DNA from: a virus | Virus record (IMG/VR): IMGVR_UViG_3300033571_011534 | Location: 11,732-75,731 of that record | Length of the DNA: 64,000 bases | Reading direction: 5' to 3' (one strand) | Shown: piece by piece, positions 224-59,458 of the stretch | Layout of the letters: each line of letters begins with the position of its first letter | Position numbering within the stretch: position 1 is the stretch's first letter | Position numbers and translations under genes: made by a program | Notes under the pieces: model-generated | Told to the model about the DNA's origin: nothing | What the model saw: only the letters and a program-made list of their open reading frames with translations | Database searches by the model: none

Positions 224-892
224 TCACACATACTTACTATTAAAGATATTGCTAATTTCTAGATGGTTTACATTAAAGTGTTTTGGCAAAGAGGAAATCC
301 ATCTAATGGCCTCTGCCACATCCTCTGCGGTCAAAGCGTTGTCTTTTTTCTCAATTTGGGTATCTATTGTTCCTGGGCAGATTTCTGTAACCTTAATGCC
401 GTACTGGGGAAATTCCATTCTCATTGTGTCAACAAGAGCCATCATCCCCCTTTTCGCATTAGTGTAATTTCCGCCACCCCGAAAAGGAACCTTTCCAGAA
501 AGAGATGATACAAAAACAATTGACGGAGACTCTGACCTTTGTAAACACGGCACGAATAGCTGAGAAAGATACATTGGTCCAGAAACGTTTATGTCATATG
601 CCATTCTAAAATTATCCATTGTTTCATTAATAATGCTGGTTGGGCTTGCTCCTCCGCCTGCATTATTTACCAGCAAATCTAGAGAAATATCCTTGTACTT
701 GTCAAAGAAGCCTTTTATCTGATCTTTTTGTGTAATGTCTAGTCGATAAAGTTCTAGGTTATCAGAACTTATTTTAGATAATTCGGACAGGTTTCTTGAT
801 ACAGCTATTACCCTATACCCAGAATTTAGCAAAAGCTTTACAGTGGCATAGCCGACGCCCTTGCTAGACCCAGTCACGATTGCCGTTTTCAT
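224..892 (-). CDS. Short-chain dehydrogenase/reductase (SDR)
   Basis: TGSSKGVG Rossmann motif, NNAG, YTNAK catalytic YxxxK, PG motif. Confidence 0.92.
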   Translation of the reverse strand: MKTAIVTGSSKGVGYATVKLLLNSGYRVIAVSRNLSELSKISSDNLELYRLDITQKDQIKGFFDKYKDISLDLLVNNAGGGASPTSIINETMDNFRMAYDINVSGPMYLSQLFVPCLQRSESPSIVFVSSLSGKVPFRGGGNYTNAKRGMMALVDTMRMEFPQYGIKVTEICPGTIDTQIEKKDNALTAEDVAEAIRWISSLPKHFNVNHLEISNIFNSKYV

Positions 893-1743
893 TATCCCAA
901 AGATTCTATTTCTTTTTCATAATAAGACTCAAAGTCTTGCCAAAACGGGACGCCATTAATTATGTCAATGTTGTCGCTATTTCTATTATATCTAAGCCTT
1001 TCGTCTTCCATCTGCTTCCAGATGTCCTCTCCATACTTTTCTTGCAACCTTTTCCAAAGTGGGTGGCCAGGGTAGTCGTATCTCCAGTATGTTCTAATAA
1101 TATACTTTTCTCCCTCAGAGACTATTTTGACTCCATGATAATGTGGGTGGCCAGAATTAAAAATAACTAAATCTCCAGCCTGGGGCTTATAGTTATATTC
1201 TTCTTTAATTACAGAAACATCGTCATTGTCTAAGAATCTAAATAAAACATCTCCACCAGAATAATTATCGTTTAGATAGAAAACTGCGGTTACGGCAAAT
1301 TTATGTCCAGGATTATAGGCAAATTCTCTTTGATAGTCTGTGTGGAAGGCCATTGCATAGTCGCCACCATTGATTTCATTTTGCCTTGGTTCATATTTTG
1401 CAATATTCCATCCACTAAATATCCAGTTATCGATAGATACATTATTTGCCTCGACGTACTCTTTTGTTGCATTGTAAAATACGTCATTTATTTCACTTTC
1501 AAATGGACCGCATGCCCCAAAGTCGTGGTCATAGATATTTTTTGCTTCTTCCCACTGTTCTGGTGTTGGAAAACTATCAAACCTAGTTGTAAAATGTGTA
1601 CCCTCTGCATGCTTTCCAAAAATATACCAGTCTTTCCATTCCACCTTTTTGTCAAGATAGTCCAACGTAGCTTCTGGACTCTTTAATGCGTTTTTAAAGA
1701 CCCAGACTGTGTTGTGGATTTTCTGAATATCAAAATTAGACAC
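892..1743 (-). CDS. 2OG-Fe(II) oxygenase, prolyl 4-hydroxylase-like
   Basis: HTD, YLNDNYSGG, HGV and KY motifs of the DSBH fold. Confidence 0.88.
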   Translation of the reverse strand: MSNFDIQKIHNTVWVFKNALKSPEATLDYLDKKVEWKDWYIFGKHAEGTHFTTRFDSFPTPEQWEEAKNIYDHDFGACGPFESEINDVFYNATKEYVEANNVSIDNWIFSGWNIAKYEPRQNEINGGDYAMAFHTDYQREFAYNPGHKFAVTAVFYLNDNYSGGDVLFRFLDNDDVSVIKEEYNYKPQAGDLVIFNSGHPHYHGVKIVSEGEKYIIRTYWRYDYPGHPLWKRLQEKYGEDIWKQMEDERLRYNRNSDNIDIINGVPFWQDFESYYEKEIESLG

Positions 1744-2437
1744 TGCAGCCTCCGTGTAGGTTCATATCATTATGAATCCAGTGGCTTGGGACCATATACT
1801 TTACCCCAGACTTTACTGTGTGGGCAATGTGATAGTACGGAGCGGATGATGGGAATATGATAATACTTCCAGCACTTGGCTTAACGCCAAAATCGATTTC
1901 GTTATTCTCAACAGCAACAGAGTAATCCAAATCTGGGCTAACAACCTTGCTGTGGTCCTCGTAATCAGAAAGCTTAAAGGATATTTCTCCGCCATCACAG
2001 TCATCATTCAAATACATTACCAAAGAGTACCTGAGGGTTTTGTCTCCATCTAGCTGGTCATAGTGTGCCCCCATTGCAGCGCCAGTATTGTATTTTTTAA
2101 TATTAAAGACTGGGAATAGCCTTGGCTCATCGCTATCGCCAACTGCTGCGGCATAGTCTTTACAAACGTTGTACAGCGACTTCATGATGTTGATGTAAAT
2201 AAATTCAGACTTACTTCTGTATGGCTCTTCCATATGCTTAATCTGATTAAGATCAAACGACTGAGTCTCTCCATATATAAAAGTCTTGTCGTTTGAAGCT
2301 GTCCAGTCTTGCCATAGCGGCTTTCCAGCGGATGCTCCGATTTCGTCTAGTTCCCTAATGGCGTCCATAACCTCTTTAAAGTTTTCGACGGCATCCTCGT
2401 AGTAGTAAACCTTTTCGTGTAATACCTGCTTTTTCAT
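1736..2437 (-). CDS. 2OG-Fe(II) oxygenase, prolyl 4-hydroxylase-like
   Basis: HYD, YLNDDCDGGE, FPS..HIA..V.SG.KY; start placed at MKKQ, abutting the upstream stop. Confidence 0.88.
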   Translation of the reverse strand: MKKQVLHEKVYYYEDAVENFKEVMDAIRELDEIGASAGKPLWQDWTASNDKTFIYGETQSFDLNQIKHMEEPYRSKSEFIYINIMKSLYNVCKDYAAAVGDSDEPRLFPVFNIKKYNTGAAMGAHYDQLDGDKTLRYSLVMYLNDDCDGGEISFKLSDYEDHSKVVSPDLDYSVAVENNEIDFGVKPSAGSIIIFPSSAPYYHIAHTVKSGVKYMVPSHWIHNDMNLHGGCSV

Positions 2438-2438
2438 A

Positions 2439-3098
2439 TTAGTACCTATTCCTTTGATAATGTCCAACTTCTTTTATAAAGCCCACAAGGACATATCTGA
2501 TTGGGCCTTCTGAAACAAATTCTACTCCATGCTCATACTTTTCATTGCCTGGAAAAATCAACAAGCACTTTGGCTTTGGCCTTAGCTTTAAGCCTAAATT
2601 TTTAAAAAGTAACTCTCCATCTTTATAGTCATCATTGATATATGTAATAGCTGCATACCTAATAGATGGGTCTGTGTGCTGATCAGTATGAGACTTTAGC
2701 TCAACCCCTGGTTGCATTCTTTGAATTGTTGCAAGCCCACTGAGCTCTAGAGAGCTATCTGCCTCTCTGACCATGGAAGCAAGCCTTTCATAAAAAACCC
2801 TATATTCTGGATATTTACTTATATTAAGATTTTTGTCTGTCCAGTTTTGAGTGATCTCGAACTTGCCCTCAGCCACAAGGTTATCTACGTCATCTCTTCC
2901 AAACTTTTCTATGCAAAAATTTTTTAAATTTGACATGTACTCAATTTCCCAGTCAGGTTGAGATGCCTCGTTAATTCTGTCTTGCAGAAAGCTTAAGTCT
3001 TCGTCTGTTAGGAAATTGTCAATAGATAGTAGCTCATCAGTTAGCTCTTCAAACGCAATGCCCCTATCTTTTAAAACTTCCTTTAACGACTCAATCAT
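2439..3098 (-). CDS. 2OG-Fe(II) oxygenase
   Basis: HTD, YINDDYKDGEL, HGV, RY; paralog of 39880..40548. Confidence 0.88.
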   Translation of the reverse strand: MIESLKEVLKDRGIAFEELTDELLSIDNFLTDEDLSFLQDRINEASQPDWEIEYMSNLKNFCIEKFGRDDVDNLVAEGKFEITQNWTDKNLNISKYPEYRVFYERLASMVREADSSLELSGLATIQRMQPGVELKSHTDQHTDPSIRYAAITYINDDYKDGELLFKNLGLKLRPKPKCLLIFPGNEKYEHGVEFVSEGPIRYVLVGFIKEVGHYQRNRY

Positions 3099-3099
3099 C

Positions 3100-3846
3100 T
3101 TACAGGTCTTCTACCTTATACTTGTTTCCATTTATGTCTATCTTGTAGCCTTCTTTTAGCAGATCTTGCCACTCTTTTCTTTCTAGCTCTTGACCGTCTC
3201 TAATCTTCTTCATTTCTTCCGCCCAGGCGTCTCTCAGCTCTTGAGGGTATGCGTCTTCTTCACGATCATCCCAAAAAGATCCGATTGTGTATCTAACGCC
3301 TGACTCAATTAGGGTAACCTCGTGCATATTATTAAATCCGCCATCAAATGCCGCAAGCATTCCAACCTTTGGCTTAATCTCTATATCTTGTGATGGGAAC
3401 TTTAGAAGACCTCCCCCAAAGTCATCATTTAAGTAAAGAAACGCAGCATATCGGCTTCTAGTAAATGGTCCAGAGTTGCCATGCTCATCTGTATTGTCGG
3501 AGTGGACTCTTGCATATGCTCCTGGCTCCCACTTTTGTGTATGGTATCCGATCTGAACGACTGTTTTTGGATCTAGGTCGTGTACGGATGCAACTGCCTC
3601 AATAATGCCCTGCTTAATTTTTGAAAAAATGTCAGAGTCAAGACCCTCATCTAGGATCTCTTGATCGCCATCCTGCGGTAAAACAGAGGAATAGGACTCG
3701 TAAAAAGATATTGGCATCCACGTAATTTTTCCAGTTTCTGCAACCTTATCTAGGACTTTTATGATTTTTTGAGATTCTTCTGGGGTTAAAAAGTTCTCAT
3801 AAAGGACTATATCCTTAGTAATCCTGTTTTTGTTATTTAAATTCAT
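3100..3846 (-). CDS. 2OG-Fe(II) oxygenase
   Basis: HSD, YLNDDFGGG, HEV..IESGVRY. Confidence 0.9.
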   Translation of the reverse strand: MNLNNKNRITKDIVLYENFLTPEESQKIIKVLDKVAETGKITWMPISFYESYSSVLPQDGDQEILDEGLDSDIFSKIKQGIIEAVASVHDLDPKTVVQIGYHTQKWEPGAYARVHSDNTDEHGNSGPFTRSRYAAFLYLNDDFGGGLLKFPSQDIEIKPKVGMLAAFDGGFNNMHEVTLIESGVRYTIGSFWDDREEDAYPQELRDAWAEEMKKIRDGQELERKEWQDLLKEGYKIDINGNKYKVEDL

Positions 3847-3898
3847 TGCAAGGCACTCCTTTTAAATATATTATAGCAGATAGTAAAAGTGGCCAGCA

Positions 3899-4624
3899 TT
3901 AAGCAAAGTTCCAGAGCGACCACTTAGATCTCCAGGAACTGTCCCATTCTTCATACCAGGACTTAGACCAATCTTCCATTTTTTGACTTCTCCAGGCTTC
4001 TCTTTCTTCAGAATACTTGGAATCAGAAAAGTCCCAGAATGAAATTATTGTATATCTGAGTCCAGACGTGATTTCCCTTACTCCGTGGATGTTTTCCTTT
4101 CCTCCAGGAAAAAGAACTAGCGACCCAGCCTTTGGCCTAACGTCCATTTCGTGCTCAGGAAAAAACACCTCTCCACCAGAATACTGATCATTTAGATAAA
4201 TAATCGCTGCGTACTTATTTATTTCAAAATGGTTAGAGTCTCCATTTTCATCTGTATTGTCGGAGTGGACATGACCAAGACCTCCAGTTTGAAATTTTTG
4301 GGCATGAATAGTGTTAAGGGAAACGTCCTTAGAGAAAAAGAAAGATACGTGATTATTTATTTTTTCAACAATGTCATATACAGTAGATTTAGAAAGATTA
4401 AACAATTCAAGATCTACGTCTGGCTCTGGGAAGTGTCCTAGTCGATATTTATAAGAAGCAACATGCCCCCAATTTTCTGGTTTGCTTTCTATATACTTAA
4501 TTATGTTTTTGCAAGCCTCATCGTCTAAAAAATCCAGAACTTCTATTATTTTATTTTGACTGATTCCAGGAGTTCCATTATTATTCAAAGAGTCTAAATG
4601 GACAACAATTTTGGGGTCCATCAT
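3899..4624 (-). CDS. 2OG-Fe(II) oxygenase
   Basis: HSD, YLNDQYSGGEV, HGV.EITSG.RY; close paralog of 3100..3846. Confidence 0.9.
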   Translation of the reverse strand: MMDPKIVVHLDSLNNNGTPGISQNKIIEVLDFLDDEACKNIIKYIESKPENWGHVASYKYRLGHFPEPDVDLELFNLSKSTVYDIVEKINNHVSFFFSKDVSLNTIHAQKFQTGGLGHVHSDNTDENGDSNHFEINKYAAIIYLNDQYSGGEVFFPEHEMDVRPKAGSLVLFPGGKENIHGVREITSGLRYTIISFWDFSDSKYSEEREAWRSQKMEDWSKSWYEEWDSSWRSKWSLWNFA

Positions 4625-4629
4625 TTTTA

Positions 4630-5304
4630 TTACTCAGAAGTTTTTTCTTTATGAGACAGGATTGTCCAAAAGAACGGTACTGTATACCTGATACCAGAGA
4701 TAATTTCTGAAACTCCATGAATGTAGTTCATGTCTCCAGGGAAGAAGTAAGCAGCGCCCCTCTTAGGCTTAAATTGAATGTTCTGGTTTGGAAAGTACAA
4801 CTCGCCACCTTCATAATCATCGTTAATGTAGAAAAGGCCAGCAATGTCGTAATATGGGAAATCATTTGGCTTACCAGCGTCTGGTCCTGTGTGAAGCTCT
4901 TTGTCTGCGTGTGGCATCTGTAGCTGCCCTGGAAGCCATCTAACCATTGCTGGGCTAGTTGGGAGGGCGTCTACGCCAAAGAACTTATCTACCTCTATCT
5001 TCAATCTTGCAACCATTCCCTCAATAATTTCTGGAATTTCTTGATTTGTTTTATAGATAGTTGGATAGGTCGCTACACGATTAGCCCAGTATCCAGCATC
5101 ATAAATAACGGTTCCGTTTTCGTTGTGATGAGTTTCTGTTTGGTCCCAGTTTTCATTACTTCTAATAAAGTCATTTAGAGCAGTCAGCTCTTCTTCGGTC
5201 ATAAAATTTTCTAGGGCAACAATGTTTTCTGGAGATGAACCAAAAAATCCAGATGGCGTAATTGAAACCCGATCAACAATGTGATTGTTAGTTAAGTCGT
5301 CCAT
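4630..5304 (-). CDS. 2OG-Fe(II) oxygenase
   Basis: HAD, YINDDYEGGEL, HGV.EI.SG.RY. Confidence 0.9.
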   Translation of the reverse strand: MDDLTNNHIVDRVSITPSGFFGSSPENIVALENFMTEEELTALNDFIRSNENWDQTETHHNENGTVIYDAGYWANRVATYPTIYKTNQEIPEIIEGMVARLKIEVDKFFGVDALPTSPAMVRWLPGQLQMPHADKELHTGPDAGKPNDFPYYDIAGLFYINDDYEGGELYFPNQNIQFKPKRGAAYFFPGDMNYIHGVSEIISGIRYTVPFFWTILSHKEKTSE

Positions 5305-5318
5305 TATAACTCTCCTTC

Positions 5319-6044
5319 TTAGTCATACTTTCGTCTTTCCCAAACCTCTTTTAAGTATACACCACCGTTGGGCACCCGATATTTCTTCGAGTTTTCCATG
5401 TTCTTTTTCATAATAGAAAGGCCAGAATCAAGCTCGTACTCAGACTCCCAGTCCTCTCGTTTAAATGGTATCATTTGAGAATATGGTGTTCCAGCTGGAA
5501 TAACCCCAGTCCAGCCTTCTTGTATAAAAAATGGAAAAGTTCCTGGAAGGTGTACCTTATCATTGTCGATGATACCGCTTGTTGTATGAAATGGCAAGTC
5601 ATATCTTCCAAAAGGCTGGGCATACAAGACGCTGTACCCCTTTGGAGTAGCTACGGCCCAGTCTGGGTACCAGGCAAAATGCTTTTTATAGTATCCTCGT
5701 GGATGCTCAAACTGCGGCATAGGATCTCGAAACTGAATAAAATCAGAGTATTTAGGGTCTAATACTTTAGCTGAAATTTCATTTTTGCTATCAAGAAAAA
5801 ACTCGATATCGCAAGGAGTTCTATATACGTAACCAGTAATAAAAATATCATATATGGCTGGGCAGGCTTTCCAGGTTGGAATCTTACCACCATCCATTCC
5901 AATGATGCTTTCTCCATTTTGTCCCTTGTAGAATCTGTCAGCAGAGGTATACCATTCTGGCAAACTTTTTGATACTGGCTCTGGAGCTGATGAGTCTTTT
6001 TCGGACAACCACCCTCTATTAGCTAAAAATTTAATTTTTGGCAT
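5319..6044 (-). CDS. Conserved phage protein, DUF6065-like
   Basis: PEWY, TWKACP, GY..TPCDI, SGIIDND, IPAGTP..Q.IPF motifs; resembles the adjacent gene. Confidence 0.5.
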   Translation of the reverse strand: MPKIKFLANRGWLSEKDSSAPEPVSKSLPEWYTSADRFYKGQNGESIIGMDGGKIPTWKACPAIYDIFITGYVYRTPCDIEFFLDSKNEISAKVLDPKYSDFIQFRDPMPQFEHPRGYYKKHFAWYPDWAVATPKGYSVLYAQPFGRYDLPFHTTSGIIDNDKVHLPGTFPFFIQEGWTGVIPAGTPYSQMIPFKREDWESEYELDSGLSIMKKNMENSKKYRVPNGGVYLKEVWERRKYD

Positions 6045-6750
6045 AATTGGTGACCTTCATGATAATCTTTTTGGATTCGTGATGGCCGATAGGGACTCCG
6101 TTGTGGTCTACAGCATCTCGATAAAAATGAGTCCATTCCCCTTTAGAGTTCTTTTCCTGACTTGCAACTCCACGATCTCTCATTCTTTCCTGCCATTGAA
6201 GGTCCTCGTATTCTGGCCTTCCATTACGAACCTCTAGTTCGTGTTCCTGAATATCAGAAAGGGATATTGGCAAGACAGAAGCTATTGGAGTGTTTGCTGG
6301 TATTGTTATTTCAATATTTGGCTCTGTAATCATCCAAGCAATCGGAAGGTCACCAGCCAAAACAGAAGTACTTATTAGGGTTGTCATACACTGAGCTCCT
6401 CTAATAAACTGATTCGGCACAGGCATTGTCAAAAGACTTAGATTTTCATTGTTTTCTTTTACAAATGTAATGTCTGTGTAAAAGCTAACAGTTCTGTTTC
6501 CACGATTTGGATGAGCATAATTTGAACCAGAAAGAATTTTTACGTGCTCTCCTCTTGAATCATTTATTCCATCCCAAATAAACGTAATATCTTCTGGGTA
6601 CGAAATGCCCCACCCAAGTCTATTTGACAAAGAAACAGGAAAGCACTGATAGGCATGTCTATCAAAAGTAATATCCATCCAGTCACGGTGTAGCGGTAGC
6701 TGATCTATATTAGCGTGATGACCAGAAGTGTAGGCTGTTACCTTGGGCAT
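6031..6750 (-). CDS. DUF6065 family protein
   Basis: RDWMD...HAYQCFP.SLSN.LGW signature recalled for DUF6065. Confidence 0.65.
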   Translation of the reverse strand: MPKVTAYTSGHHANIDQLPLHRDWMDITFDRHAYQCFPVSLSNRLGWGISYPEDITFIWDGINDSRGEHVKILSGSNYAHPNRGNRTVSFYTDITFVKENNENLSLLTMPVPNQFIRGAQCMTTLISTSVLAGDLPIAWMITEPNIEITIPANTPIASVLPISLSDIQEHELEVRNGRPEYEDLQWQERMRDRGVASQEKNSKGEWTHFYRDAVDHNGVPIGHHESKKIIMKVTNYAKN

Positions 6751-7454
6751 CAGGAACCTGTCTCTTGGTAGAACTTTGGATTGTGATATTTATCTGAGTA
6801 ATCCAGCATTGTCACAATAGAATGCTTTATTCCAGACTCTACTGGCAACGATTTGTGAGGATACATGTAGTTAGATGGGAAGATGAAAAGATCTCCTGCC
6901 CTTGGCTTTACCTTTAGCCCCTGTAGTCTAAATTCTAGCTCTCCACCAGTATAGTCATCATTTGGATAGGCAACAAGCGAAACAACACAGTTATAGGAGT
7001 AACCGTTGTCAGAATGCTCTTGGAAGTGTTGTCCTGGACCATATTTTACAAAGTTCATTGCTTCCCAGTAGCGGAGCTCTCCGACGTTGAATCGTCTTGA
7101 GTAATCTTTTACTGCTGCGATTTCTCTATCATAAACATCTTGCCACAACTGCTGAAGCTTTTGAGATGCTGGAGATTGGTCATGCATAATATCTGTTTTC
7201 TTGTACTTAAAATCCCAGCAGTCACGGTATTCTGGCATCTTGGTACCGTAGCCCACCATAGCTTCCATGTAGTTGTAGTAGTTTGTATTATCGTCCAAAA
7301 CCTCTTCGAGTCTATTTATGATATCCATATCTGTAGGAAGGACATCGTGGTATACGAATATGCCAGGAGATAGCTCCTCTACAGAAGACCAAGTCTGCTC
7401 TTCGATCTGATAGTATTCCTGAATTCTTCTGCTTAAATCTTCAACTTTTTCCAT
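6750..7454 (-). CDS. 2OG-Fe(II) oxygenase
   Basis: FVKY, HSD, NDDYTGGEL, FPSNYMYPH, SG.K. Confidence 0.9.
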   Translation of the reverse strand: MEKVEDLSRRIQEYYQIEEQTWSSVEELSPGIFVYHDVLPTDMDIINRLEEVLDDNTNYYNYMEAMVGYGTKMPEYRDCWDFKYKKTDIMHDQSPASQKLQQLWQDVYDREIAAVKDYSRRFNVGELRYWEAMNFVKYGPGQHFQEHSDNGYSYNCVVSLVAYPNDDYTGGELEFRLQGLKVKPRAGDLFIFPSNYMYPHKSLPVESGIKHSIVTMLDYSDKYHNPKFYQETGS

Positions 7455-7464
7455 TTTTCACCAA

Positions 7465-8220
7465 TCAGTATGTTATCTTTGTCGAGTCCTCTTGCCTATA
7501 TGGGAAATATCTTAGATTTCCACGATCATTGTAGTCTGTCATAACAACCACAGAGTACTTTGTACCGCTTTTCATTGGCAATGAGGCGTGTTCATATATA
7601 TATGTAGATGGGAAAACAGCAATATCTCCAGGCTTTGGCTTAATAGTTAAATCAAACCTTGGGAAGTAAAGCTCTCCACCCTCATAATCATCGTTTAGGT
7701 ATGCAACAACAGAGACTGTAGTCACATATGCGGGACCATGGTCTGCATGAATATTAAAATGCTTCCCCTCTCCCTCATACTTTACAAAATTAAATGCTTC
7801 GTAGTATGATATTCCTACTCCCCAATAGTGTCCATAATCCTGGACATTTGGGTGAATAGCCTGAAATGCCTTTTCGTGCATATCATATAGTTCTGAGTTT
7901 TCTGGATTTCTTGGGCCGTAGGAAGTACTATTAATTTTAAAGTCTACACAATCTCTTGCATCTGATAAAACAGCATCAGACTCTGTTACCATGGCTCCGT
8001 GCCACTTATAGACATCACTTGTGCTATTCGTAAGCTTTGACTCTAGGGTATTTATAATGCTCTTACAGTCGTTAAAAGAAATAGCATTATTGTAAATATT
8101 AATTCCAAGTGCTGGATTTGATACTAAAATACCGCCACCTGTTGTTCTGTCTGGCATTCTGTTGCTATAAGTTTCGGATCTATCTTTAGTTAGCCAAGGA
8201 TTTTCATATTGTTGTTCCAT
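7465..8220 (-). CDS. 2OG-Fe(II) oxygenase
   Basis: FVKY, HAD, YLNDDYEGGEL, FPSTYIYEH, SGTKY; leaderless after TGATATAAT (8227-8235, minus). Confidence 0.9.
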   Translation of the reverse strand: MEQQYENPWLTKDRSETYSNRMPDRTTGGGILVSNPALGINIYNNAISFNDCKSIINTLESKLTNSTSDVYKWHGAMVTESDAVLSDARDCVDFKINSTSYGPRNPENSELYDMHEKAFQAIHPNVQDYGHYWGVGISYYEAFNFVKYEGEGKHFNIHADHGPAYVTTVSVVAYLNDDYEGGELYFPRFDLTIKPKPGDIAVFPSTYIYEHASLPMKSGTKYSVVVMTDYNDRGNLRYFPYRQEDSTKITY

Positions 8221-8244
8221 GCAGCAATTATATCACAGTGGCCA

Positions 8245-8289
8245 AAACAGAAAAACTGCAAGTTATTTCTAACCTGCAGCTTTCTGTTT
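8245..8289 (-). terminator. Hairpin/intrinsic terminator after the FN3-PPFF gene
   Basis: Imperfect inverted repeat aaacagaaa..ctgca / tgcag..tttctgttt; T-run on minus strand. Confidence 0.6.
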
Positions 8290-8299
8290 ATACGCTAAC

Positions 8300-9112
8300 C
8301 TAGCAGCGGGGTGGACATCCACCAAACCTTGGGAAGAATGGACCGAATCTAGGGAAGAATGGCGGGAAGAATGGTGGGAAGAATGGGAAGAACGGTGGGA
8401 AGAACGGCGGGAAGAACGGTGGGAAGAATGGTGGGAAGAATGGGAACCATGGTGGGAAAAATGGTGGGAAGAACGGGAACCATGGTGGGAAGAATGGGGG
8501 GAAGAACGGTGGAGTAGTAGTAATGTCTCCAGAATATGGAGACCACTCTCCTAGGCCATTTGCATTTTGAGCACGTACACGATATGCCTGAGTAGTAGAA
8601 CCCTCTTGAGCAACGGTAACAGAAGTGCTTGTAGTGGACCCACTCTTGCTATCTGTACTTTCCCAAGAATAAGAAGTAATAGTACTTCCTCCGTTATTTG
8701 GGATATTCCAGCTTACAATATCCTCATTAACTTGTGGGCTAGCTGAAGGAGCATTAGGCGCTGCTGGAACTGTGGTTGCTGTAACACTTACAGATGAAGA
8801 TGGCTGAGAAGTTCCAGCATTATTAGATGCAGTTACTGTAACAGAGTAGCTAACATTAGAGGCAAGACCCTCTACGGAAATTGGAGAAGAAGATCCTGTG
8901 CCAGTTCTAGTGGTCTGGCCAGATGCTGTAGCAGTTACAGTATAAGAGTTGGCAGCTGGAGAATCATCTGGCAAAGAGAACGACACAGTTGCTGCGCCGT
9001 TATTAAAAGCTCTTGATGTCCCTACGTTTTGTGCTGATACATTGATCGGAGCCTTAGGCTCTAAAAAGTCATTCTGCTGTGACGACCTTCCGCCAACTTC
9101 TTTCTTTGCCAT
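8300..9112 (-). CDS. Two fibronectin type III domains plus C-terminal (PPFF)n repeat tail; probable virion-surface protein
   Basis: FN3 signatures (GLASNVSYSVTVTASNNAG; VSW..P.NGGS.IT.Y...YRVRAQNANG.GEWS); 70-aa Pro/Phe tail ending GCPPRC. Confidence 0.8.
   Translation of the reverse strand: MAKKEVGGRSSQQNDFLEPKAPINVSAQNVGTSRAFNNGAATVSFSLPDDSPAANSYTVTATASGQTTRTGTGSSSPISVEGLASNVSYSVTVTASNNAGTSQPSSSVSVTATTVPAAPNAPSASPQVNEDIVSWNIPNNGGSTITSYSWESTDSKSGSTTSTSVTVAQEGSTTQAYRVRAQNANGLGEWSPYSGDITTTPPFFPPFFPPWFPFFPPFFPPWFPFFPPFFPPFFPPFFPPFFPFFPPFFPPFFPRFGPFFPRFGGCPPRC
8303..8512 (-). repeat. Coding tandem repeat, ~12-bp unit encoding PPFF/PPWF/PFF/PRFG
   Basis: Plus-strand gggaagaa(t/c)gg(t/c) repeated, with synonymous variation. 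Confidence 0.95.
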
Positions 9113-9208: not shown

Positions 9209-11605
9209 TTAGGCCTTTAGGTCTCCATAAACAATCCAGCTGTTCTCTGAACGCTTTAGAATTGTTGCAGATGACCACTGAGTTCTAAGCTTTAGACCTG
9301 GTGTTGAGTTTACGGTAACACCAGCAGCACCAGCAATCGTAACCTCACCAGTACCAGTTCCAAGGATGTCCATGGATGCTCCGACTGGCCATGCCAGGGT
9401 AGCGTTTGCTGGAATTGTAAAGGTAGTTGCTGAAGATGAGCTCATCTCTACAATACCGTCTCTTAGGTCTAGGTCGTCTAGTGTATAGCTTGAAGTTTTT
9501 ACTACAAACTCAGTAAGTGATGGAACACCAACTTTAGTCTGGGTACCGTCGGTAAATACGACTCCAGCAGCAGTTAGGTTGTTTACCTGTAGGTCATCAA
9601 GAGATCCCTGTCCAAAATCAACAGTTGTTGCAGGCTCAGTGGTTACACCCTTGAATAGCTTCCAGCGGTCGTCAGATACGTCACGAACGATACCAGCATG
9701 CTTTAATGCTCCGTCGTTGTATCCTACTACAAGACCAAGGTCTACGGTGTTTGCAGCATTTTCGTGTGCAAGCTGAAGCATGTTGTCTTCAATTGTGATG
9801 CTTGTTGCACTTGCTAAAAACTCTGTACCATTTACAGTCAAGTCACCGTCAACAACTAGATTTCCTTCTACTTCTACGTTTCCAGTAAAGGTTGCACCAG
9901 AAAGGTTTGCCTTTGCGTCTAAAGCTGTTTGAGTTGCAGTAGAAACTGGCTTGTCAGCATCAGAGGTGTTGTCTACATCTCCAAGACCAACGTGTGCCTT
10001 TGTTACACCCGCAACAGTTCCAGTAAATGTTGGATTAGCTGTAGGAGCCTTAGAGTCTAACTGATCCTGAACGTTTGAAGATACAGTAGAGATGTGGCCA
10101 AGCTCAGTTGCAGACACGTTTCCAATCGAAGTAGTGCTTGGAAGAGTTACTGTTCCAGAAAGCGTTGGGTTATTAAGTGGTGCATAAGTTGCAGACGCCA
10201 CTGAAGAGTCTAGCTTGTCATCAATCTGGTTCTGGATTGAAGATGTTACACCATTAAGGTGACCAATCTCGGAAGAAGAGACGTCCCCAATTGAAGTGGT
10301 AGATGGCAAGACAACAGTTCCAGTAAAGTTTGGTGATTCTGATGGAGCCTTCTCTGCAAGATCAGAAACGACAGTATTTAGAGTGGTCTGCTGATCTGCA
10401 AAGTCATTGTCAAGTCCCAAAATGTTAGCATTCGCTGCTATCAGTCCGTCAGACAAAGCACTTACTGCGTCATTGATAGTTAAAATATCTGTAGCAGCCT
10501 GGTTTGCAGTTGTGGTTACTGTAGCTAGGTCGTTTGCAACTGAAGTAACAGTATCAGAAATAGCATCATCAGCTGCAGTAAGGGTGTCAGAAAGTGTTAA
10601 AATTTCAGAATCAACATAGCCCTTGCTAGCAACAACATCTAGGTCTGCAGAAAAAGTATTTCCATTAAGAGTAATTCCTAGTCCAGCAAGATAGGTTCCT
10701 GCACCAGAGAACTGAGTAAATTCAACAGGGTCTGTTCCGATAGTTCCTACGGTAGCTGTTTGAACCCATCCAGTGTCTCCATTAACCGTTCCTCCAGATA
10801 CGAAAACAAAGTCACCAGCATCAATTTCTGCAGGTGAGTTATAGTCTTGTGCTCTATTGGTTGAATAGTTTGTTCCGCCCATGGACTGAAGAGCATAAAT
10901 ACCATTTTGTGTTGGGTCTGTTTGATCCTTTACAAGAATTCTCATGCCGTCGAAGGTTGTGACACCGTCAATGCTTGGAAGATTAGATCCAGAAGAAATA
11001 AGAATGTTTTCAGTTGTTGCAGCCGCTACAGACTCGTGAATGTGCAGGTTGGAAGCTACGCCATCAACATATGACTTAGTTGCAGCTTCTAGTGGCTGTG
11101 TTGGGTTTGCACTAAGAACAACAGAGCCAGTAAAGACTGCTCCATCTCCACGTGCGTAGTCTGCTAGCATAGTGTCAGTATAGTCTTTGGACTCTGTTAC
11201 TCCGTCCTCAACACTTTGCTGAATATTTGTAAAGAAGTTAGGGTCATCGCCAATAGCATCTGCTAGCTCTGAAAGAGTGTCAAGAGCTTCTGGTGCCAGG
11301 CCAACTACGTTTTCGATTGCCTGGTCTACATAGCCAAGCTGCGAGGCTGGAATCTGACCACTTGAGTTAAGAGTTGCAACACCATTAGCTGCGCCTCTCT
11401 GGGTAAGAGGAACATAGTCATCAATAGATCCGCCAAGCGTCGTTGCATTTTGGAAGTAGTCTAGCTGGCTCCAAGTGCTTTCTCCATCACCAATCTTAAA
11501 AGAGTTGGTGTCAACCTCGAAACCAATTTCTCCAGGTCCTAGCACTGGGTTTGCTGTGGTCCACTGTTCTGCGGTACCACGACGCTGCTGCATTCTAATA
11601 GCCAT
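9209..11605 (-). CDS. Tail fibre-like structural protein with Mtd N-terminal-like domain
   Basis: QRRGTAEQW...L.PGEIGFE.DT..FKIGDG N-terminus; APEALDTL.ELA, GLGDVDNTSDADKPVS fibre motifs; LRTQWSSAT...W.VYGDL C-terminus. Confidence 0.75.
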   Translation of the reverse strand: MAIRMQQRRGTAEQWTTANPVLGPGEIGFEVDTNSFKIGDGESTWSQLDYFQNATTLGGSIDDYVPLTQRGAANGVATLNSSGQIPASQLGYVDQAIENVVGLAPEALDTLSELADAIGDDPNFFTNIQQSVEDGVTESKDYTDTMLADYARGDGAVFTGSVVLSANPTQPLEAATKSYVDGVASNLHIHESVAAATTENILISSGSNLPSIDGVTTFDGMRILVKDQTDPTQNGIYALQSMGGTNYSTNRAQDYNSPAEIDAGDFVFVSGGTVNGDTGWVQTATVGTIGTDPVEFTQFSGAGTYLAGLGITLNGNTFSADLDVVASKGYVDSEILTLSDTLTAADDAISDTVTSVANDLATVTTTANQAATDILTINDAVSALSDGLIAANANILGLDNDFADQQTTLNTVVSDLAEKAPSESPNFTGTVVLPSTTSIGDVSSSEIGHLNGVTSSIQNQIDDKLDSSVASATYAPLNNPTLSGTVTLPSTTSIGNVSATELGHISTVSSNVQDQLDSKAPTANPTFTGTVAGVTKAHVGLGDVDNTSDADKPVSTATQTALDAKANLSGATFTGNVEVEGNLVVDGDLTVNGTEFLASATSITIEDNMLQLAHENAANTVDLGLVVGYNDGALKHAGIVRDVSDDRWKLFKGVTTEPATTVDFGQGSLDDLQVNNLTAAGVVFTDGTQTKVGVPSLTEFVVKTSSYTLDDLDLRDGIVEMSSSSATTFTIPANATLAWPVGASMDILGTGTGEVTIAGAAGVTVNSTPGLKLRTQWSSATILKRSENSWIVYGDLKA

Positions 11606-11671
11606 GTAAAAACTCCTCGTTAAAGCTTATATTAAATTATATATACAATTTTAAATAAAGATTTGATTTCT

Positions 11672-12127
11672 TTAGTTAAAATTATCTATTGCAATTCCAC
11701 CATTGTAGATGTCTGCCCAATCAATTGTTCCTGGGCCACCGCCATCTGCAGCAGTTCCCTGAGGCTGATTAAAGCTTCCAGCATCAACAAACCTGGTCAC
11801 GATAAGTCCATTTCCATCGATAGATGTATCGTGAATGTGGTCTGGAATATTTAGCGTGTCATCGATTGTTGCGATTGTTCGCCAAAGTCCTTCGTAGTAT
11901 ACGTTAATTCTTTCTACAATGGTGTCGAACCAAAGCATTCCGTTTAGTGGGTCTTCTGGAGGGGTTGATCCAGAAGGCATAAGTCCAGAAACAGAGTCAA
12001 CGTATTCTTTTGTTGCTAAATGTGTAGGAAGAGTAGGGTTAGCCGCAGCAACATTTCCTCCAAATAAACCGTCGCCAGCTACCTGTATTCCATGCTTGAC
12101 TTTAAAGTCTTTATTAACTGCAGTCAT
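11672..12127 (-). CDS. Virion structural protein (tail fibre associated)
   Basis: KDFKVKHG N-terminus shared with the adjacent gene; ATKEYVD and G.LWFDT fibre motifs. Confidence 0.55.
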   Translation of the reverse strand: MTAVNKDFKVKHGIQVAGDGLFGGNVAAANPTLPTHLATKEYVDSVSGLMPSGSTPPEDPLNGMLWFDTIVERINVYYEGLWRTIATIDDTLNIPDHIHDTSIDGNGLIVTRFVDAGSFNQPQGTAADGGGPGTIDWADIYNGGIAIDNFN

Positions 12128-12153
12128 CCCTACTCTCCCTATTTATTAAATTA

Positions 12154-14445
12154 CTATGAAAGTAATGTTCCCATTACCTTGATTGTTGAATTGTTGTTGG
12201 TTGGGGTAACAAGAAGTCTTACGTTACCGCCAGTTACGTCTGCAGTAATACCTGATGCAGAACCGTTTGTTCCTACAACAGCGTACTCTGTAATCGCAAT
12301 GTTGTCTGAAGAGTCAAGGGTCAAAAGAACCTCTGATACCTCAGTGTGAGATCCGTGAGCAACCTTAACCAAGAACTTTGCAGATCGGTAATCTGCAGTA
12401 GCAAAGCTGTATGCTACAACGTTCTGGGAAGCGTCTCCAGAAGATGCTGCTGCAACCTGAGTTGCAACCTCATTAATGTCGATCTCTGTAAAGTTAGGAA
12501 CAACAGCCTCTAGAGCAGATACTGCACGAGCATCCGTAAAGTAGAGGTTTGTAGAACCTTCAGCAAGATCATCAGTATCAGAGTCTGCAACACCGTTTTC
12601 AGCAGTAATGGTTAGACCATTCTCATCTCCAGTAATCTGAATGTTGGTTTTTGTTGCTCCAACAAGAAGGTCTGCTGCATCTGCCTTTGCACGTGATGTA
12701 GTGTAGTAAAGGTTGGTTGTGCCTTCCTCAATGTCATCAGTGTCAAGTGCGTTAATAGCATCGCCAATAGTTCCGCCTACTGCATCAATTGCTCTCTGGT
12801 TTGTGAAGTATAGGTTATTGCTTCCCTCTTCAATGTCGTCAGAGTTTAGAGCAGAGATTTCTGTGTCTGTGTAAAGCTTTGCATCAGCTTCTGCCAAATC
12901 AGCGTAGTTCTGGTAAGCAGTAGTGATTGCAGCTTCACGAGCATCTGTGTGGTCCTTGGCATTGTTTTCTGCTGTGTTTGCATAACCCTGAGCAGCAGTG
13001 TCTAGATCTGAGATTTCGGCGTCTACATAAGACTTAGTAGCAGTGTAGTCCTCGTCAATAGAAAATGAGTTTCCATTCAGATTTAGACCAGTGCCTGCAA
13101 CGTACTCTCCAGCACCAGAGAACTGATCAAAATTAATTGAGCTTGTTCCCAAAGTTGTTACAACGTTTGTCTGAACCCATCCAGTACTTGCGTAGGTGTT
13201 ACCTCCAGTTACGAAGGTAAAGTCACCACCCTGGATTTCGGCAGCAGAGTTGTAGTCATCTGCACGTACCCAAGCACCAGGCTTTGCTAGATAGATACCA
13301 TTCTCAGTGGTATTTGACTGATTCTTAACAAGGACACGCTCATCTTCGTTAAGACCTACGCCATCAATTGTTAGCAAGCCACCTGTTGCAAGATCTACGT
13401 TTGCAGCTGTTGCTGCAACTACAGATGCGTGAACATGTAGTCCCTCTGCAACTGCGTCTACGTACTGCTTTGTAGCTGCACCAAGTGCCTGAGTTGGGTC
13501 TCCAGGAAGAATAACATCACCAGTAAAGGTTGCTCCAGCTAGTGGTGCATACAGAAGTGCTGCTGCACTAGCTGCTGCATTGATAGCATCAGCCTCAGCT
13601 TCATCTGCATACTCCCTTAGAGAAGTGTCTAGTGTGTCAATCTCGTCATTGGTGTATGCGTTTGCGGAACCAAGAGTTGCGGTGTCTGCGTCATCTACAT
13701 AGTTCTTAGTTGTAGCATCTGTACCAGCAGTAGGTGTTCCAAGATCTTCAATCTTGTTACCGTTCATGTCTAGGTTTACAGATAGGTTAGTTCCCGCACC
13801 AAGAGTCTTGTTGGTAAGAGCCTGGGTATTGTCAGTTCCTACAACGAATCCAGATACTCCGTGTACGCCTGTGTCTAGGTCTGAGTGGTTGGTTACTGCT
13901 GTTGCAATTCTGTCTGATACTGTGTTTCCAGCGGTACCGTCAACAGTATTGTCACCGATTAGGTTATCAACTGTTCCCTTGACAACTACTTTGTTATCTG
14001 GTGCCTCGCCATTTATAAATACATTTCCATCAGGTACATCAAATTCTACCATTCCACTAGCACTAATGCCGATAAAATCATTTGCATCTAAACGAATATC
14101 ATCTGATGCATTTAGTCTAAAGTCATTAGTGTTAATCTCAACATCGGTGTTGTCAATATTGGCAATAACAAGATCGCCATCCTCATCCTCATAGATACGA
14201 GCGATGTCCGTAACACTAAGCTCATTTACTGTGATATCTCCTGCAGCAAAGTTACCGCTTGCATCACGCTTTACAACCTTGTTTGGCACATTTGCTGACT
14301 CTGCTCCGCCACCAGCTAGGTTGATAATGTACTGCTCATCTGCAGCATTTTCTTTCTTAAGGACATCGTATCCGCCTACGGTAGCATTTGCACCCTCAAC
14401 GACAAGTCCTGATTTAATCTTAAAGTCTTTTACGACTGTTGCCAT
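12154..14445 (-). CDS. Tail fibre-like structural protein
   Basis: ATK.YVD repeats, three DD(I/L).EG..NLY(F/Y)T..RA repeats, internal domain shared with 9209..11605. Confidence 0.7.
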   Translation of the reverse strand: MATVVKDFKIKSGLVVEGANATVGGYDVLKKENAADEQYIINLAGGGAESANVPNKVVKRDASGNFAAGDITVNELSVTDIARIYEDEDGDLVIANIDNTDVEINTNDFRLNASDDIRLDANDFIGISASGMVEFDVPDGNVFINGEAPDNKVVVKGTVDNLIGDNTVDGTAGNTVSDRIATAVTNHSDLDTGVHGVSGFVVGTDNTQALTNKTLGAGTNLSVNLDMNGNKIEDLGTPTAGTDATTKNYVDDADTATLGSANAYTNDEIDTLDTSLREYADEAEADAINAAASAAALLYAPLAGATFTGDVILPGDPTQALGAATKQYVDAVAEGLHVHASVVAATAANVDLATGGLLTIDGVGLNEDERVLVKNQSNTTENGIYLAKPGAWVRADDYNSAAEIQGGDFTFVTGGNTYASTGWVQTNVVTTLGTSSINFDQFSGAGEYVAGTGLNLNGNSFSIDEDYTATKSYVDAEISDLDTAAQGYANTAENNAKDHTDAREAAITTAYQNYADLAEADAKLYTDTEISALNSDDIEEGSNNLYFTNQRAIDAVGGTIGDAINALDTDDIEEGTTNLYYTTSRAKADAADLLVGATKTNIQITGDENGLTITAENGVADSDTDDLAEGSTNLYFTDARAVSALEAVVPNFTEIDINEVATQVAAASSGDASQNVVAYSFATADYRSAKFLVKVAHGSHTEVSEVLLTLDSSDNIAITEYAVVGTNGSASGITADVTGGNVRLLVTPTNNNSTIKVMGTLLS

Positions 14446-15681: not shown

Positions 15682-16302
15682 TTGAGAAATACAGTTGCAA
15701 TAATGGGATCAGTATTAGTTTTGCTTGGATGCTCCTCGTCCACACATGCAAATGAACGCAGTAATTCGCTACCGCTTTCTTATAGCTCTAGCTATTCGAC
15801 AGGGCCGATTGGCGATCTTCTTGGAGTAAGTGACGATATTACGATGCTAGAAAAATTAGCAGAAGATTATCAAATAGCTTCACAAAAAGAATTTGAAAGA
15901 AAAAAGGCAGCAATACAAAACAGAATGGCGCTAGAGTCTAGAATGAAAGCCCTTTATTCTTATGTTGGAAAAACCCCATACGTTTTTGCTGGCTCTACCC
16001 CTAGAGGATGGGACTGCTCTGGACTAGTTCTGTGGTTTTACTCTGGACTAGGGGTAGACCTTGAGCATTCTGCAACGAAGCAGGCAATGTCTGGGAAAAA
16101 GGTAGAAATTCCAGCTTTTGGAGATCTTGTGGCATTTAAGCATTTTAGTGCCAAGAAGTATTTTCATATTGGGATCTACATTGGTGACGGAAAAATTATC
16201 CACTCCAGAGAGCCTGGAACAGTGACCGCCATATCAGAAATTAACGACAAGTGGTTTGAAAGAAGCTACGTTGAGTTTGTCAGAATTGTAGACACTCAGT
16301 GA
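15682..16302 (+). CDS. NlpC/P60 cell-wall peptidase, probable lipoprotein
   Basis: GKTPYVFAG...GWDCSGLV, HIGIY.G...IH; LLGC lipobox; AGGAGG RBS. Confidence 0.9.
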   Translation: MRNTVAIMGSVLVLLGCSSSTHANERSNSLPLSYSSSYSTGPIGDLLGVSDDITMLEKLAEDYQIASQKEFERKKAAIQNRMALESRMKALYSYVGKTPYVFAGSTPRGWDCSGLVLWFYSGLGVDLEHSATKQAMSGKKVEIPAFGDLVAFKHFSAKKYFHIGIYIGDGKIIHSREPGTVTAISEINDKWFERSYVEFVRIVDTQ

Positions 16303-16799
16303 AAATCGTTTTATCAATAACTTCTTTTTTAGCCCTGTCTGGATTAGCCATAGGGCTTGTTTCAAGCTTTTCAAAAAATGATACCCAATCGCTAAAAGTC
16401 TCAAATGCCGCCACTGTGTCATTTGAGCGGGGAAGCTACAAAATAGTAAAAGAAAAAGATACCTATAAAACACAAATATCTGAAAAAAGACTTAGACAAA
16501 TATTAAGTAAAGTAGGATTTAAAGAAGATGCATTAGATATGGCCGTAGCTATTGCATATTACGAATCAACCTTTAGACCCATGGCATTAAATAGATCTAG
16601 CAACTGCTATGGACTATTCCAAATAAATATGACTGGCGACCTTGGAAAATCACGTAGGGAAAAATACGGACTATCTAAAAATGAAGATCTATTTAATCCT
16701 GTAATCAATGCGTCTATTGCATATAAAATGTCAAATGGTGGAAAGAACTGGTCTGCCTGGACAACTAAGGATCTTGCAGAAGCAAAGGTTAACGGCTAA
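16299..16799 (+). CDS. Secreted lytic transglycosylase (SLT/lysozyme-like)
   Basis: Signal peptide; AIAYYES, GLFQIN, NP..NA, WSAW. Confidence 0.85.
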   Translation: MKIVLSITSFLALSGLAIGLVSSFSKNDTQSLKVSNAATVSFERGSYKIVKEKDTYKTQISEKRLRQILSKVGFKEDALDMAVAIAYYESTFRPMALNRSSNCYGLFQINMTGDLGKSRREKYGLSKNEDLFNPVINASIAYKMSNGGKNWSAWTTKDLAEAKVNG

Positions 16800-17290: not shown

Positions 17291-18166
17291 CTAGACAGCG
17301 ACTAGTCTGCCAGTTGTTGGCGTAGTACATCCTCTGGACTGTAGTCTAGAAGTACTATCGCAAGAAGATGAAAATGTGGTAACAACCCTGTCCTGAACTC
17401 CACCAGAGCATCGGCTCCAGCTTCCTTCTACTGTCATAGAGCAGCATCTGCTATCAGATTGAGTGTATTTTGAGCAGTCCGATCTTGTACACGTTCTGGT
17501 TCCAGACTGAGTTCCTCCAGAACAACCTCCCCAACTATAAGAGCCACATCCAGAGCTGCAGCAAGATCTTGTTGTTTCCTCAAACCTAATACTGCAATCA
17601 GTTCTAGTACAAACTCTTTCTCCAATTTGAACACCACCAGAACATGGCCCCCATGTATAAGATCCACAGTTTGCGCTGCAGGTGGGAGCTGGAGGAACGT
17701 ATCCGCAAGTTGTTGAGTTAGAAATGCTACTTGTTGAGCTTACAGATGAGCAAGACTGAGTTTGAACAGACACAGACCCATCGCTATAGGAGTATGTTAC
17801 CTGATTTTCCCTAAAGGTAGTTGTGGTTGTAAGAAGTGTAGTTCCACTACAAAAAGTGCTACTTGATGATCCAACAGAGTAACATGGCCCCGAAATAACA
17901 TCGACCAAAACGATTGCTGGCGGTACATAAGACGAATAAACAAAAGAAATCGGCAGCTCGTAATCAATTAACGTACCAGCGTTTACTGATTGTGAATTAA
18001 TTCTGTCATTAAGAGATTGGTTCGTGGTACTAGACGAGCTTTCCGCATTAAACCTTAGTCCAGCAGACTGAATAGCCGCCCTGGCCTGCTCTCTAGTTAG
18101 TCCAGAAAGGTTCGGCATGGCAACCATTCCCTTGGATGATCCGAATCTAGATAAAGCCCCTAGCAT
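17291..18166 (-). CDS. PASTA-like domain plus Cys-rich thrombospondin-type-1-like repeats
   Basis: MPNLSGLT..QARAAI..AGL...SQS..AG; three W..CSGG.Q...R repeats. Confidence 0.65.
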   Translation of the reverse strand: MLGALSRFGSSKGMVAMPNLSGLTREQARAAIQSAGLRFNAESSSSTTNQSLNDRINSQSVNAGTLIDYELPISFVYSSYVPPAIVLVDVISGPCYSVGSSSSTFCSGTTLLTTTTTFRENQVTYSYSDGSVSVQTQSCSSVSSTSSISNSTTCGYVPPAPTCSANCGSYTWGPCSGGVQIGERVCTRTDCSIRFEETTRSCCSSGCGSYSWGGCSGGTQSGTRTCTRSDCSKYTQSDSRCCSMTVEGSWSRCSGGVQDRVVTTFSSSCDSTSRLQSRGCTTPTTGRLVAV

Positions 18167-59297: not shown

Positions 59298-59458
59298 TTT
59301 TCTCGCTTTCTTTTTGCTGAATAAATTTTTGATCAATTAGTTTTTGAATTACTCTTTCTGCTATGAGGTCTGCAAACTTTTCATCTTGCAGTTGTTTATC
59401 AAATAGCTCTGGAAGTCCCATTGCGTTTCCTATCTCTAAATATAAATTATATCATAAG

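Follow-up and report, generated by a model that had tools for sequence, protein, structure and literature searches.

An in-frame proline/phenylalanine repeat tail and an adjoining prolyl-hydroxylase-like gene array in the fibre region of an uncultured phage

The locus

In this report, we examine a proline- and phenylalanine-rich repeat encoded in a 64,000-nucleotide (nt) stretch of viral DNA (IMG/VR record IMGVR_UViG_3300033571_011534, positions 11,732 to 75,731; hereafter the window, in whose coordinates features are given unless another contig is named). The repeat forms the C-terminal tail of a 270-residue FN3-FN3-(PPFF)n protein encoded on the minus strand at 8300..9112. This gene, delimited from the list of open reading frames (ORFs), its 882 homologues and its conserved position, is the last of a tail-fibre block. 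Its tail comprises 70 residues (201-270; coding sequence 8303..8512, minus strand), defined by translation, a codon table and Tandem Repeats Finder, and ends in the motif G-C-P-P-R-C, a CxxxC (8303..8320, minus strand). Beginning 80 nt downstream lies a co-oriented array of oxygenase genes identified with Pfam (892..8220, minus strand).

The FN3 protein and its tail

Two folded domains precede the tail. The first FN3 domain (about residues 22-113; 8774..9049, minus strand) is matched by Pfam PF00041 over residues 37-110 (E 5.8e-9; 36.5 bits against a cut-off of 25), and a second, FN3-like domain (about residues 118-200; 8513..8761, minus strand) shows strands over residues 123-183 in an AlphaFold2 model. 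Built from a 34-sequence alignment, that model places two beta-sandwich domains over residues 22-200, with a predicted local distance difference test score (pLDDT) of ~97. Moreover, the family profile matches the tandem FN3 domains of titin and fibronectin in the PDB. The protein has no match in PHROGs, and tblastn searches of 50,697 GenBank phage records with the whole protein, the FN3 head or a homologue bearing a Hint domain (see “Family-wide variation”) returned no family member, only weak FN3 matches. The stop codon lies at 8300-8302 and is followed, 16 nt further on, by a terminator-like hairpin with a U-run (8251..8284, minus strand; consensus scan; RNA fold -29.5 kcal/mol, z -2.85).

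Reading from 8512 down to 8303, translation gives nine PPFF, two PPWF, four PFF and two PRFG units, then GCPPRC. Over the 70 residues this amounts to P 30, F 30, R 3, G 3, W 2 and C 2, a proline content of 43%, with Pro or Pro-Pro every 3-4 residues. Proline is spelled in four ways (CCA 20, CCG 7, CCC 2, CCT 1), phenylalanine is TTC at 28 of its 30 codons, and the nine PPFF units have six DNA spellings. Units are 9 or 12 nt long, so that they differ by whole codons only and the frame is always kept. An 11-residue PPWF-PFF-PPFF block (33 nt) stands in tandem duplicate, its copies differing at two synonymous sites, and Tandem Repeats Finder reports periods of 12, 33 and 45 nt. A frame check across the repeat found that only the PPFF frame runs on from the FN3 head: a second same-strand frame is open across it without a start codon after the preceding stop, and the two open opposite-strand frames would encode Glu/Trp-rich or Gly/Arg/Met-rich polymers.

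An earlier note, made from the letters of this DNA, had listed these unit counts, the duplicated block and the varied proline codons, and the translation and codon table bear out all three. Its view that the tract is not a pure slippage microsatellite is upheld by the six PPFF spellings and the whole-codon length changes, and its assignment of the tail to an FN3 protein by the PF00041 match and the AlphaFold2 folds. It had also seen no evident signal peptide, and the N-terminus indeed has no hydrophobic signal-like segment. Finally, the CxxxC end to which it drew attention recurs: at least four relatives end in GGCPPRC, and GGCPPRC or TGCPPRC ends are found in L003/L004, L006, L125 and L161. 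The likely role of this CPPRC terminus is to form a small disulfide loop or to link chains.

The tail does not follow the collagen pattern of Gly at every third residue, having three Gly per 70 residues. AlphaFold2 gives it a pLDDT of 50-60 and neither helix nor strand, and a trimer prediction with three copies of residues 115-270 scored 0.00, which weighs neither way.

Family-wide variation

The homologues come from a search of 5.8 billion proteins at E<1e-3, and a back-translated scan of IMG/VR recovered at least 574 loci of the FN3-tail family. Among 170 classifiable unique members, 135 carry a Pro-rich aromatic repeat after the second FN3 domain and 25 carry a Pro-poor one, while about three look frameshifted after a few units. 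The earlier note had named homologues without the tail, or with frameshifted repeats, as grounds for doubting it; with an aromatic tail in 160 of the 170, the survey favoured the tail. Since synonymous spellings and codon-sized insertions and deletions coincide with an in-frame aromatic-rich tail in 160 of 170 homologues, the tract is by these measures translated and selected at the protein level.

Pooled over the family, the repeats consist of F (46%), P (42%) and Y (5%), and their units rank in frequency as PFF, PPFF, PYF, PPYF and PPRF. The median tract is 53 residues long, in a range of 12-181. FN3 heads that are 95-100% identical bear tracts of differing length (39/43/71, 49/80 and 53/79) and also differing end modules. 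For example, P0001, the nearest protein to that of the window, is identical through the head and ends in a different four-Cys motif. Because the same heads, P0001 included, occur with varied tract lengths and ends, the repeat is, on this comparative evidence, a hot spot for slippage and C-terminal module exchange, and the breakpoint between conserved and variable parts seems to lie at its start.

Four types of end were seen: Cys-rich knobs, one Lys or a few residues, acidic tails, and a domain of ~170 residues. The last, present in about a third of members, starts with Cys-x-x-x-Thr right after the repeat and often ends ...VHN(K). As a profile of 28 members bearing it matches 2lwy (bacterial intein-like, 1e-7) and two inteins (1e-5), it can be assigned as a Hint domain, and autoprocessing by it at the end of the repeat is plausible. 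The window protein has no Hint domain, ending six residues past the repeat. The domain follows the repeat directly in P0003, P0037, P0062, P0096 and others, and at loci L089, L115, L133 and L149. Hint-capped relatives include proteins with unrelated N-terminal parts; a C-extein is absent, and Gln often takes the place of the block-B His.

Aromatic polymers of the FYN, FGFSP or FTPYS type replace the Pro-Phe tail on the same FN3 head at L042, L054, L016, L034, L047 and L070. At L068 and L072, a (PV)n linker is followed by a Cys-rich domain.

PPFF repeats outside the FN3 family

The same genome encodes a second PPFF protein left of the window (L083:8119-8991, equivalent to G000:C1:8119-8991, minus strand; 290 residues), laid out as an Ig-like domain, an internal (PPFF)7 linker and a He_PIG Ig domain, and adjoining a collagen-like Mtd_N fibre gene (L083:9000-9998). 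In some relatives (G015 and G012), a third PPFF locus is found ~9 kb upstream of the gene for the FN3 protein. More widely, a back-translated (PPFF)4 scan of IMG/VR found at least 120 stretches. The carriers listed include proteins of 700-1561 residues with internal tracts followed by FN3-like domains, forms with an N-terminus that is PASTA-like by eye and a final Lys after the repeat, and more Hint-capped proteins. Across 185,579 prokaryote genomes, (PPFF)4 occurs ten times, always on contigs of metagenome-assembled genomes and with fibre or oxygenase neighbours in at least six cases; these ten are probably phage DNA, and the repeat appears essentially phage-specific. Lake and freshwater metagenome contigs also pile up on the repeat DNA at window 8359-8460, with summed depths of hundreds to thousands. 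PPFF-coding repeats thus appear to be common in lake and freshwater communities and will fragment short-read assemblies.

In the literature, we found no account of PPFF/PFFP-type repeats in phages, and work on phage prolyl hydroxylases with tail fibres and on freshwater actinophages yielded nothing on the PPFF repeat family.

The hydroxylase-like array

Eight genes of the array match PF13640 (Pfam; all minus strand): 7465-8220, 6750-7454, 4630-5304, 3899-4624, 3100-3846, 2439-3098, 1736-2467 and 892-1743. Interspersed on the same strand are a DUF6065 gene (6031-6750, Pfam), the product of which has no meaningful sequence match in the PDB, and a conserved gene without a Pfam match (5319-6044). 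A short-chain dehydrogenase (SDR) gene follows (224..892, minus strand; PF00106, E 2e-40), and two further PF13640 genes found with Pfam lie just left of the window (L083:10042-10746 and 11384-11962, minus strand). The products are divergent, being 17-37% identical to the first of them (that of 7465-8220), and the HxD...H iron triad is invariant in all ten paralogues. Against the PDB, the PF13640 array profile matches the prolyl-4-hydroxylases (P4Hs) of Bacillus anthracis (8e-17) and of Paramecium bursaria chlorella virus 1 (PBCV-1; 2e-8, 5c5t), as well as human P3H1, PHD2 and a Chlamydomonas P4H. By motif and profile, the array enzymes are P4H-like 2-oxoglutarate- and Fe(II)-dependent (2OG-Fe(II)) oxygenases.

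Elsewhere in the genome, two more PF13640 genes stand outside the array, at window 22750-23388 (plus strand) and G000:C1:52001-52240 (~window 40270-40509, plus strand), and the whole record has 12 PF13640 matches. An extended -10 element, TGnTATAAT (window 8227-8235, minus strand), stops 6 nt short of the start codon (ATG, 8220) of the first oxygenase gene. This suggests that the array transcript is leaderless and starts after the terminator-like hairpin, a style typical of Actinobacteria.

Co-variation of Pro-Pro tails with hydroxylase-like genes

The comparison covered the 67 family loci for which 4 kb or more of downstream DNA was available. The 48 loci with a Pro-Pro tail all have three or more P4H-like genes within 8 kb downstream, starting 2-2500 nt away, and all 19 with a Pro-poor aromatic tail (FGFSP, FTPYS and FYN types) have two or fewer. 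On a tree of the FN3 head, tail type and array change six times each, coinciding every time. The same division holds at the level of whole records: 12 Pro-Pro phages carry 5-13 PF13640 genes per record (records 45-81% complete), and eight Pro-poor phages carry 0-2, including records that are 88, 94 and 100% complete. Furthermore, of the 12 Pro-Pro phage records, 11 contain (PP[FY]F)2, seven of them at two or three separate loci, and none of the eight Pro-poor records does. In five array-poor phages no orthologue of the second PPFF protein turned up, an empty result that shows nothing alone. Taken together, these comparisons indicate that enzyme and repeat are gained and lost together, though physically linked.

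The association reaches beyond the FN3 family. Among 47 other (PPFF)4 ORFs with at least 4 kb of flanking DNA, a P4H-like gene lies within 6 kb in 32 cases, and these neighbours often share only 27-46% identity with the window genes. Collagen-like repeats, present in array-bearing and array-poor phages alike, were rejected as the explanation of the enzyme expansion; they may be an additional substrate.

Gene neighbourhood and host

Upstream of the FN3-tail gene lies a gene for a 798-residue fibre protein with an Mtd_N N-terminal domain (9209..11605, minus strand; PF18454, E 1.7e-11; tblastn matches to tail-fibre and minor-tail proteins), followed by two more fibre-block genes (151 and 763 residues; 11672..14445, minus strand) assigned by PHROG and conserved order. 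The PHROG matches of the 763-residue protein are to tail-fibre, virion-structural and head-decoration families. This order, from the 763-residue fibre-like protein through the 151-residue protein and the Mtd_N fibre to the FN3-tail protein, is kept in 80 related loci. Beyond the array come the collagen-like Mtd_N fibre, the second PPFF protein, a 1193-residue protein, and portal, protease and capsid genes. The order of these flanking genes places the array inside a late structural module, bracketed by two PPFF proteins. Collagen-like repeats occur in other genes, at L083:9000-9998 and window 20881-21588.

Genes of a lysis type, for an NlpC/P60 endopeptidase and a lysozyme-like SLT protein, occupy window 15682-16799, within the structural region and on the opposite (plus) strand. 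At window 17291-18166 (minus strand), a 291-residue protein combines an N-terminal PASTA domain with a repeated Cys-rich region (CxxGCGSYxWGxCSGG...). Further away, a full-length KatG catalase-peroxidase of 731 residues is encoded at window 57141-59336 (minus strand) and shares ~54% identity with KatG of enterobacteria. This unusual auxiliary gene is confined to this phage and its nearest relative among 20 related phage records. KatG was considered as an extensin-type cross-linker of the system and rejected, being present in two of those 20 records.

Streptomyces phages of ~130 kb share 43% identity with the capsid protein and 55% with another gene, and freshwater metagenome contigs match parts of the window almost exactly. 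Given this similarity, the NlpC/P60, SLT and PASTA-domain genes and the freshwater matches, the uncultured phage, of ~110 kb, likely has a freshwater actinobacterial host.

Interpretation and alternatives

The sequence comparisons above give us high confidence that the tract is translated, evolves fast and serves fibre-region proteins as an aromatic/proline stalk or linker. The strongest lead is the hydroxylase-like array directly downstream, of which the earlier note's text made no mention. In our reading, the tail is the C-terminal low-complexity module of a small fibre-associated FN3-FN3 protein. With Pro or Pro-Pro so closely spaced, neither helix nor sheet would be possible in the tract, which would instead form an extended, Phe-studded, polyproline-II-like stalk of ~20 nm. 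P4H-type enzymes accept polyproline-II substrates, and the ten P4H-like oxygenases downstream would hydroxylate the tail prolines, and possibly other residues, after translation. Like the hydroxyproline of plant extensins and collagen, this modification would make the stalk stiffer and more soluble. The finished appendage might act as a spacer or a sticky whisker that positions the FN3 domains or touches the host envelope. The hydrophobic polyproline-type rod for adhesion or cross-linking that the earlier note had suggested is compatible with everything seen. That the Pro-Pro tail is an extensin-like, extended aromatic/proline stalk hydroxylated by the adjacent array is, in our judgement, a proposal with equal chances of proving right or wrong.

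Several points weigh against it. The link between tail and hydroxylases is comparative only, and no hydroxyproline or other modification has been observed; likewise, virion association is deduced from gene position alone. The AlphaFold2 model of the tail is of low confidence, and the picture of an extended rod leans on composition. The tree is that of one short domain, and its well-supported branches require just two of the six joint changes. Since the tail lies next to the array, the two could also travel together as one recombination cassette even if the enzymes never act on the tail. Ten divergent paralogues exceed the obvious needs of a two-letter repeat. The Pro-poor aromatic tails of sister phages show that the tail can do without proline, and presumably hydroxylation too; what stays constant across the family is aromaticity rather than proline. 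Finally, 7-13 PF13640 genes were counted in four cultured cyanomyoviruses, all of which lack a PP[FY]F repeat, so that expanded P4H-like sets have other substrates elsewhere.

Some of these points lead to the most serious alternative, namely an unmodified aromatic sticky tail or spacer whose side chains, with or without proline, bind the host envelope or polysaccharide or hold fibres together. The array would then act elsewhere, on collagen-like fibres, other virion proteins or a small molecule, and would track Pro-Pro tails because both belong to one exchangeable host-range cassette. Pro-poor FGFSP, FTPYS or FYN repeats on the same FN3 head, which make aromaticity the common denominator, fit such a tail, and a shared cassette fits a locus in which the tail adjoins the array and the second PPFF protein flanks that array. 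Cyanomyoviruses with many PF13640 genes and no PPFF, together with the secondary-metabolite roles proposed for cyanophage dioxygenase arrays (PMC2938197), point to other targets as well. Yet the separation of tail types by array is complete over 67 loci and 20 whole records, and PPFF carriers outside the FN3 family also adjoin P4H-like genes only 27-46% identical to those of the window. Collagen-like repeats, as alternative targets, are found in both phage groups; the enzymes are of the protein prolyl-hydroxylase type, and their array is embedded in a structural module. We consider this alternative a real possibility, though one well short of an even chance.

The two remaining explanations fare far worse. 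According to the earlier note's other suggestion, the tail would be a multi-core ribosomal-peptide precursor cut into PPFF-type peptides, possibly cyclised and tailored by the oxygenases. PPFF is indeed the core of antamanide and cyclolinopeptide A, a cyclo-PPFF scaffold has been described (PMC9266943), and enzymes of a tailoring type adjoin the gene. However, the units abut without recognition or spacer sequences and in irregular phase, PPFF being mixed with PFF. What carries the repeat is no leader peptide but two folded FN3 domains, ~200 residues together, within a fibre operon; identical heads show freely varying repeat number; and elsewhere the repeat is an internal linker flanked by folded domains (L083:8119-8991 and the 700-1561-residue proteins). 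Pfam scans of 30 neighbouring ORFs revealed no prolyl oligopeptidase, macrocyclase or other protease of that kind, the genes encoding oxygenases, the SDR, DUF6065, fibre, lysis and collagen-like proteins. The precursor claim therefore did not hold up, and we rate it as very unlikely. An assembly artefact, or a non-coding microsatellite fused by chance to an FN3 gene, is more improbable still. In favour of an artefact, a 16.4-kb Logan contig from the probable source run tracks the window from 9400 to 8384 and then departs inside the repeat, giving the different Cys-rich end of P0001, so that the last 27 codons lack independent confirmation in the Logan assembly of that run. Many unrelated lake-metagenome contigs pile up on the repeat, and such repeats break assemblies. 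On the other side, frame and Pro/aromatic pattern are retained in hundreds of independent assemblies, the FN3 head reads on into the PPFF frame alone, and relatives from other samples (L003, L004, L006 and L125) share the GGCPPRC end and the same oxygenase genes downstream.

Returning to the hydroxylated stalk, a broader version of the proposal can be put forward tentatively, as one we would sooner doubt than believe. In it, Pro-Pro/aromatic tracts would be the natural substrates of phage prolyl-hydroxylase-like oxygenases, yielding hydroxyproline-rich, extensin-like fibre appendages. The divergent paralogues would each install a different hydroxylation, at Pro C3 or C4 or perhaps on aromatic side chains, and covalent attachment of the stalk to the virion or host wall would come from disulfide knobs or, by way of an activated C-terminus, from Hint domains. 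If true, this would be a post-translational matrix chemistry previously undescribed in bacteriophages. More immediately, the locus and its relatives offer a concrete and easily expressed candidate substrate for orphan phage hydroxylases, and the sister phages with Pro-poor tails and no array provide a natural control. Confirmation would mean that phages chemically tailor their own fibre appendages, and would extend the set of known structural repeats by an aromatic polyproline polymer.

Comparison with known systems

Extensins and other hydroxyproline-rich glycoproteins have tandem Pro-Pro repeats with aromatics, are hydroxylated by P4Hs and form extended rods, some of them cross-linked through aromatic residues. 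They differ in being built on Ser-Pro(3-5) and Tyr, secreted, O-glycosylated and cross-linked by peroxidase, whereas the phage repeat is dominated by Phe, no glycosyltransferase was seen in the phage array and KatG is unlinked to the trait (two of 20 records). T4 Hoc-type proteins are Ig-fold virion decorations, thought to be weakly adhesive, and resemble the FN3-tail protein in having small tandem Ig-fold domains encoded among structural genes. They anchor via a folded capsid-binding domain, and we know of no Hoc-type protein with a Pro/Phe polymer or hydroxylase partners. The precursors of antamanide and cyclolinopeptide A are short, with leader and recognition sequences and a dedicated prolyl oligopeptidase; the PPFF tetrapeptide is shared, whereas these precursor features are absent from the phage protein. 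Bacterial intein-like (BIL)/Hint domains, which cap the C-termini of variable surface proteins (solved example 2lwy), find a parallel in the third or so of family members whose repeat ends in a Hint domain, the protein of the window ending in GCPPRC instead.

P4H-type 2OG-Fe(II) oxygenase genes are among the commonest ‘auxiliary’ genes of aquatic viromes. Their tandem arrays in phages have been on record since 2010 (PMC2938197), and the use of viral P4H ‘remains cryptic’ (PMC9301287). The closest precedent for a viral enzyme-repeat pair is PBCV-1, the P4H of which acts on the virus’s own Pro-rich repeats (Eriksson et al. 1999, as cited in PMC9301287). Like the phage, PBCV-1 encodes a P4H-type 2OG-Fe(II) oxygenase and proteins with short tandem Pro-rich repeats; unlike it, PBCV-1 belongs among the eukaryotic viruses, has a single enzyme and carries charged repeats of the (PAPK)n type. 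The phage, as known from its genes only, has ten divergent paralogues in one array and an aromatic repeat on FN3 domains in a fibre operon. Cyanophages such as Syn9 come nearest to the array itself, with orphan tandem arrays of about ten classical 2OG-Fe(II) dioxygenases from several families, for which small-molecule products were proposed (Iyer, Abhiman, de Souza and Aravind 2010, PMC2938197). The window enzymes are ~25-30% identical to those of cyanomyoviruses. In the four cyanomyoviruses the genes are scattered and PP[FY]F repeats are absent, whereas the array described here is bracketed by two PPFF proteins within a structural module, in a phage whose capsid protein is Streptomyces-phage-like.

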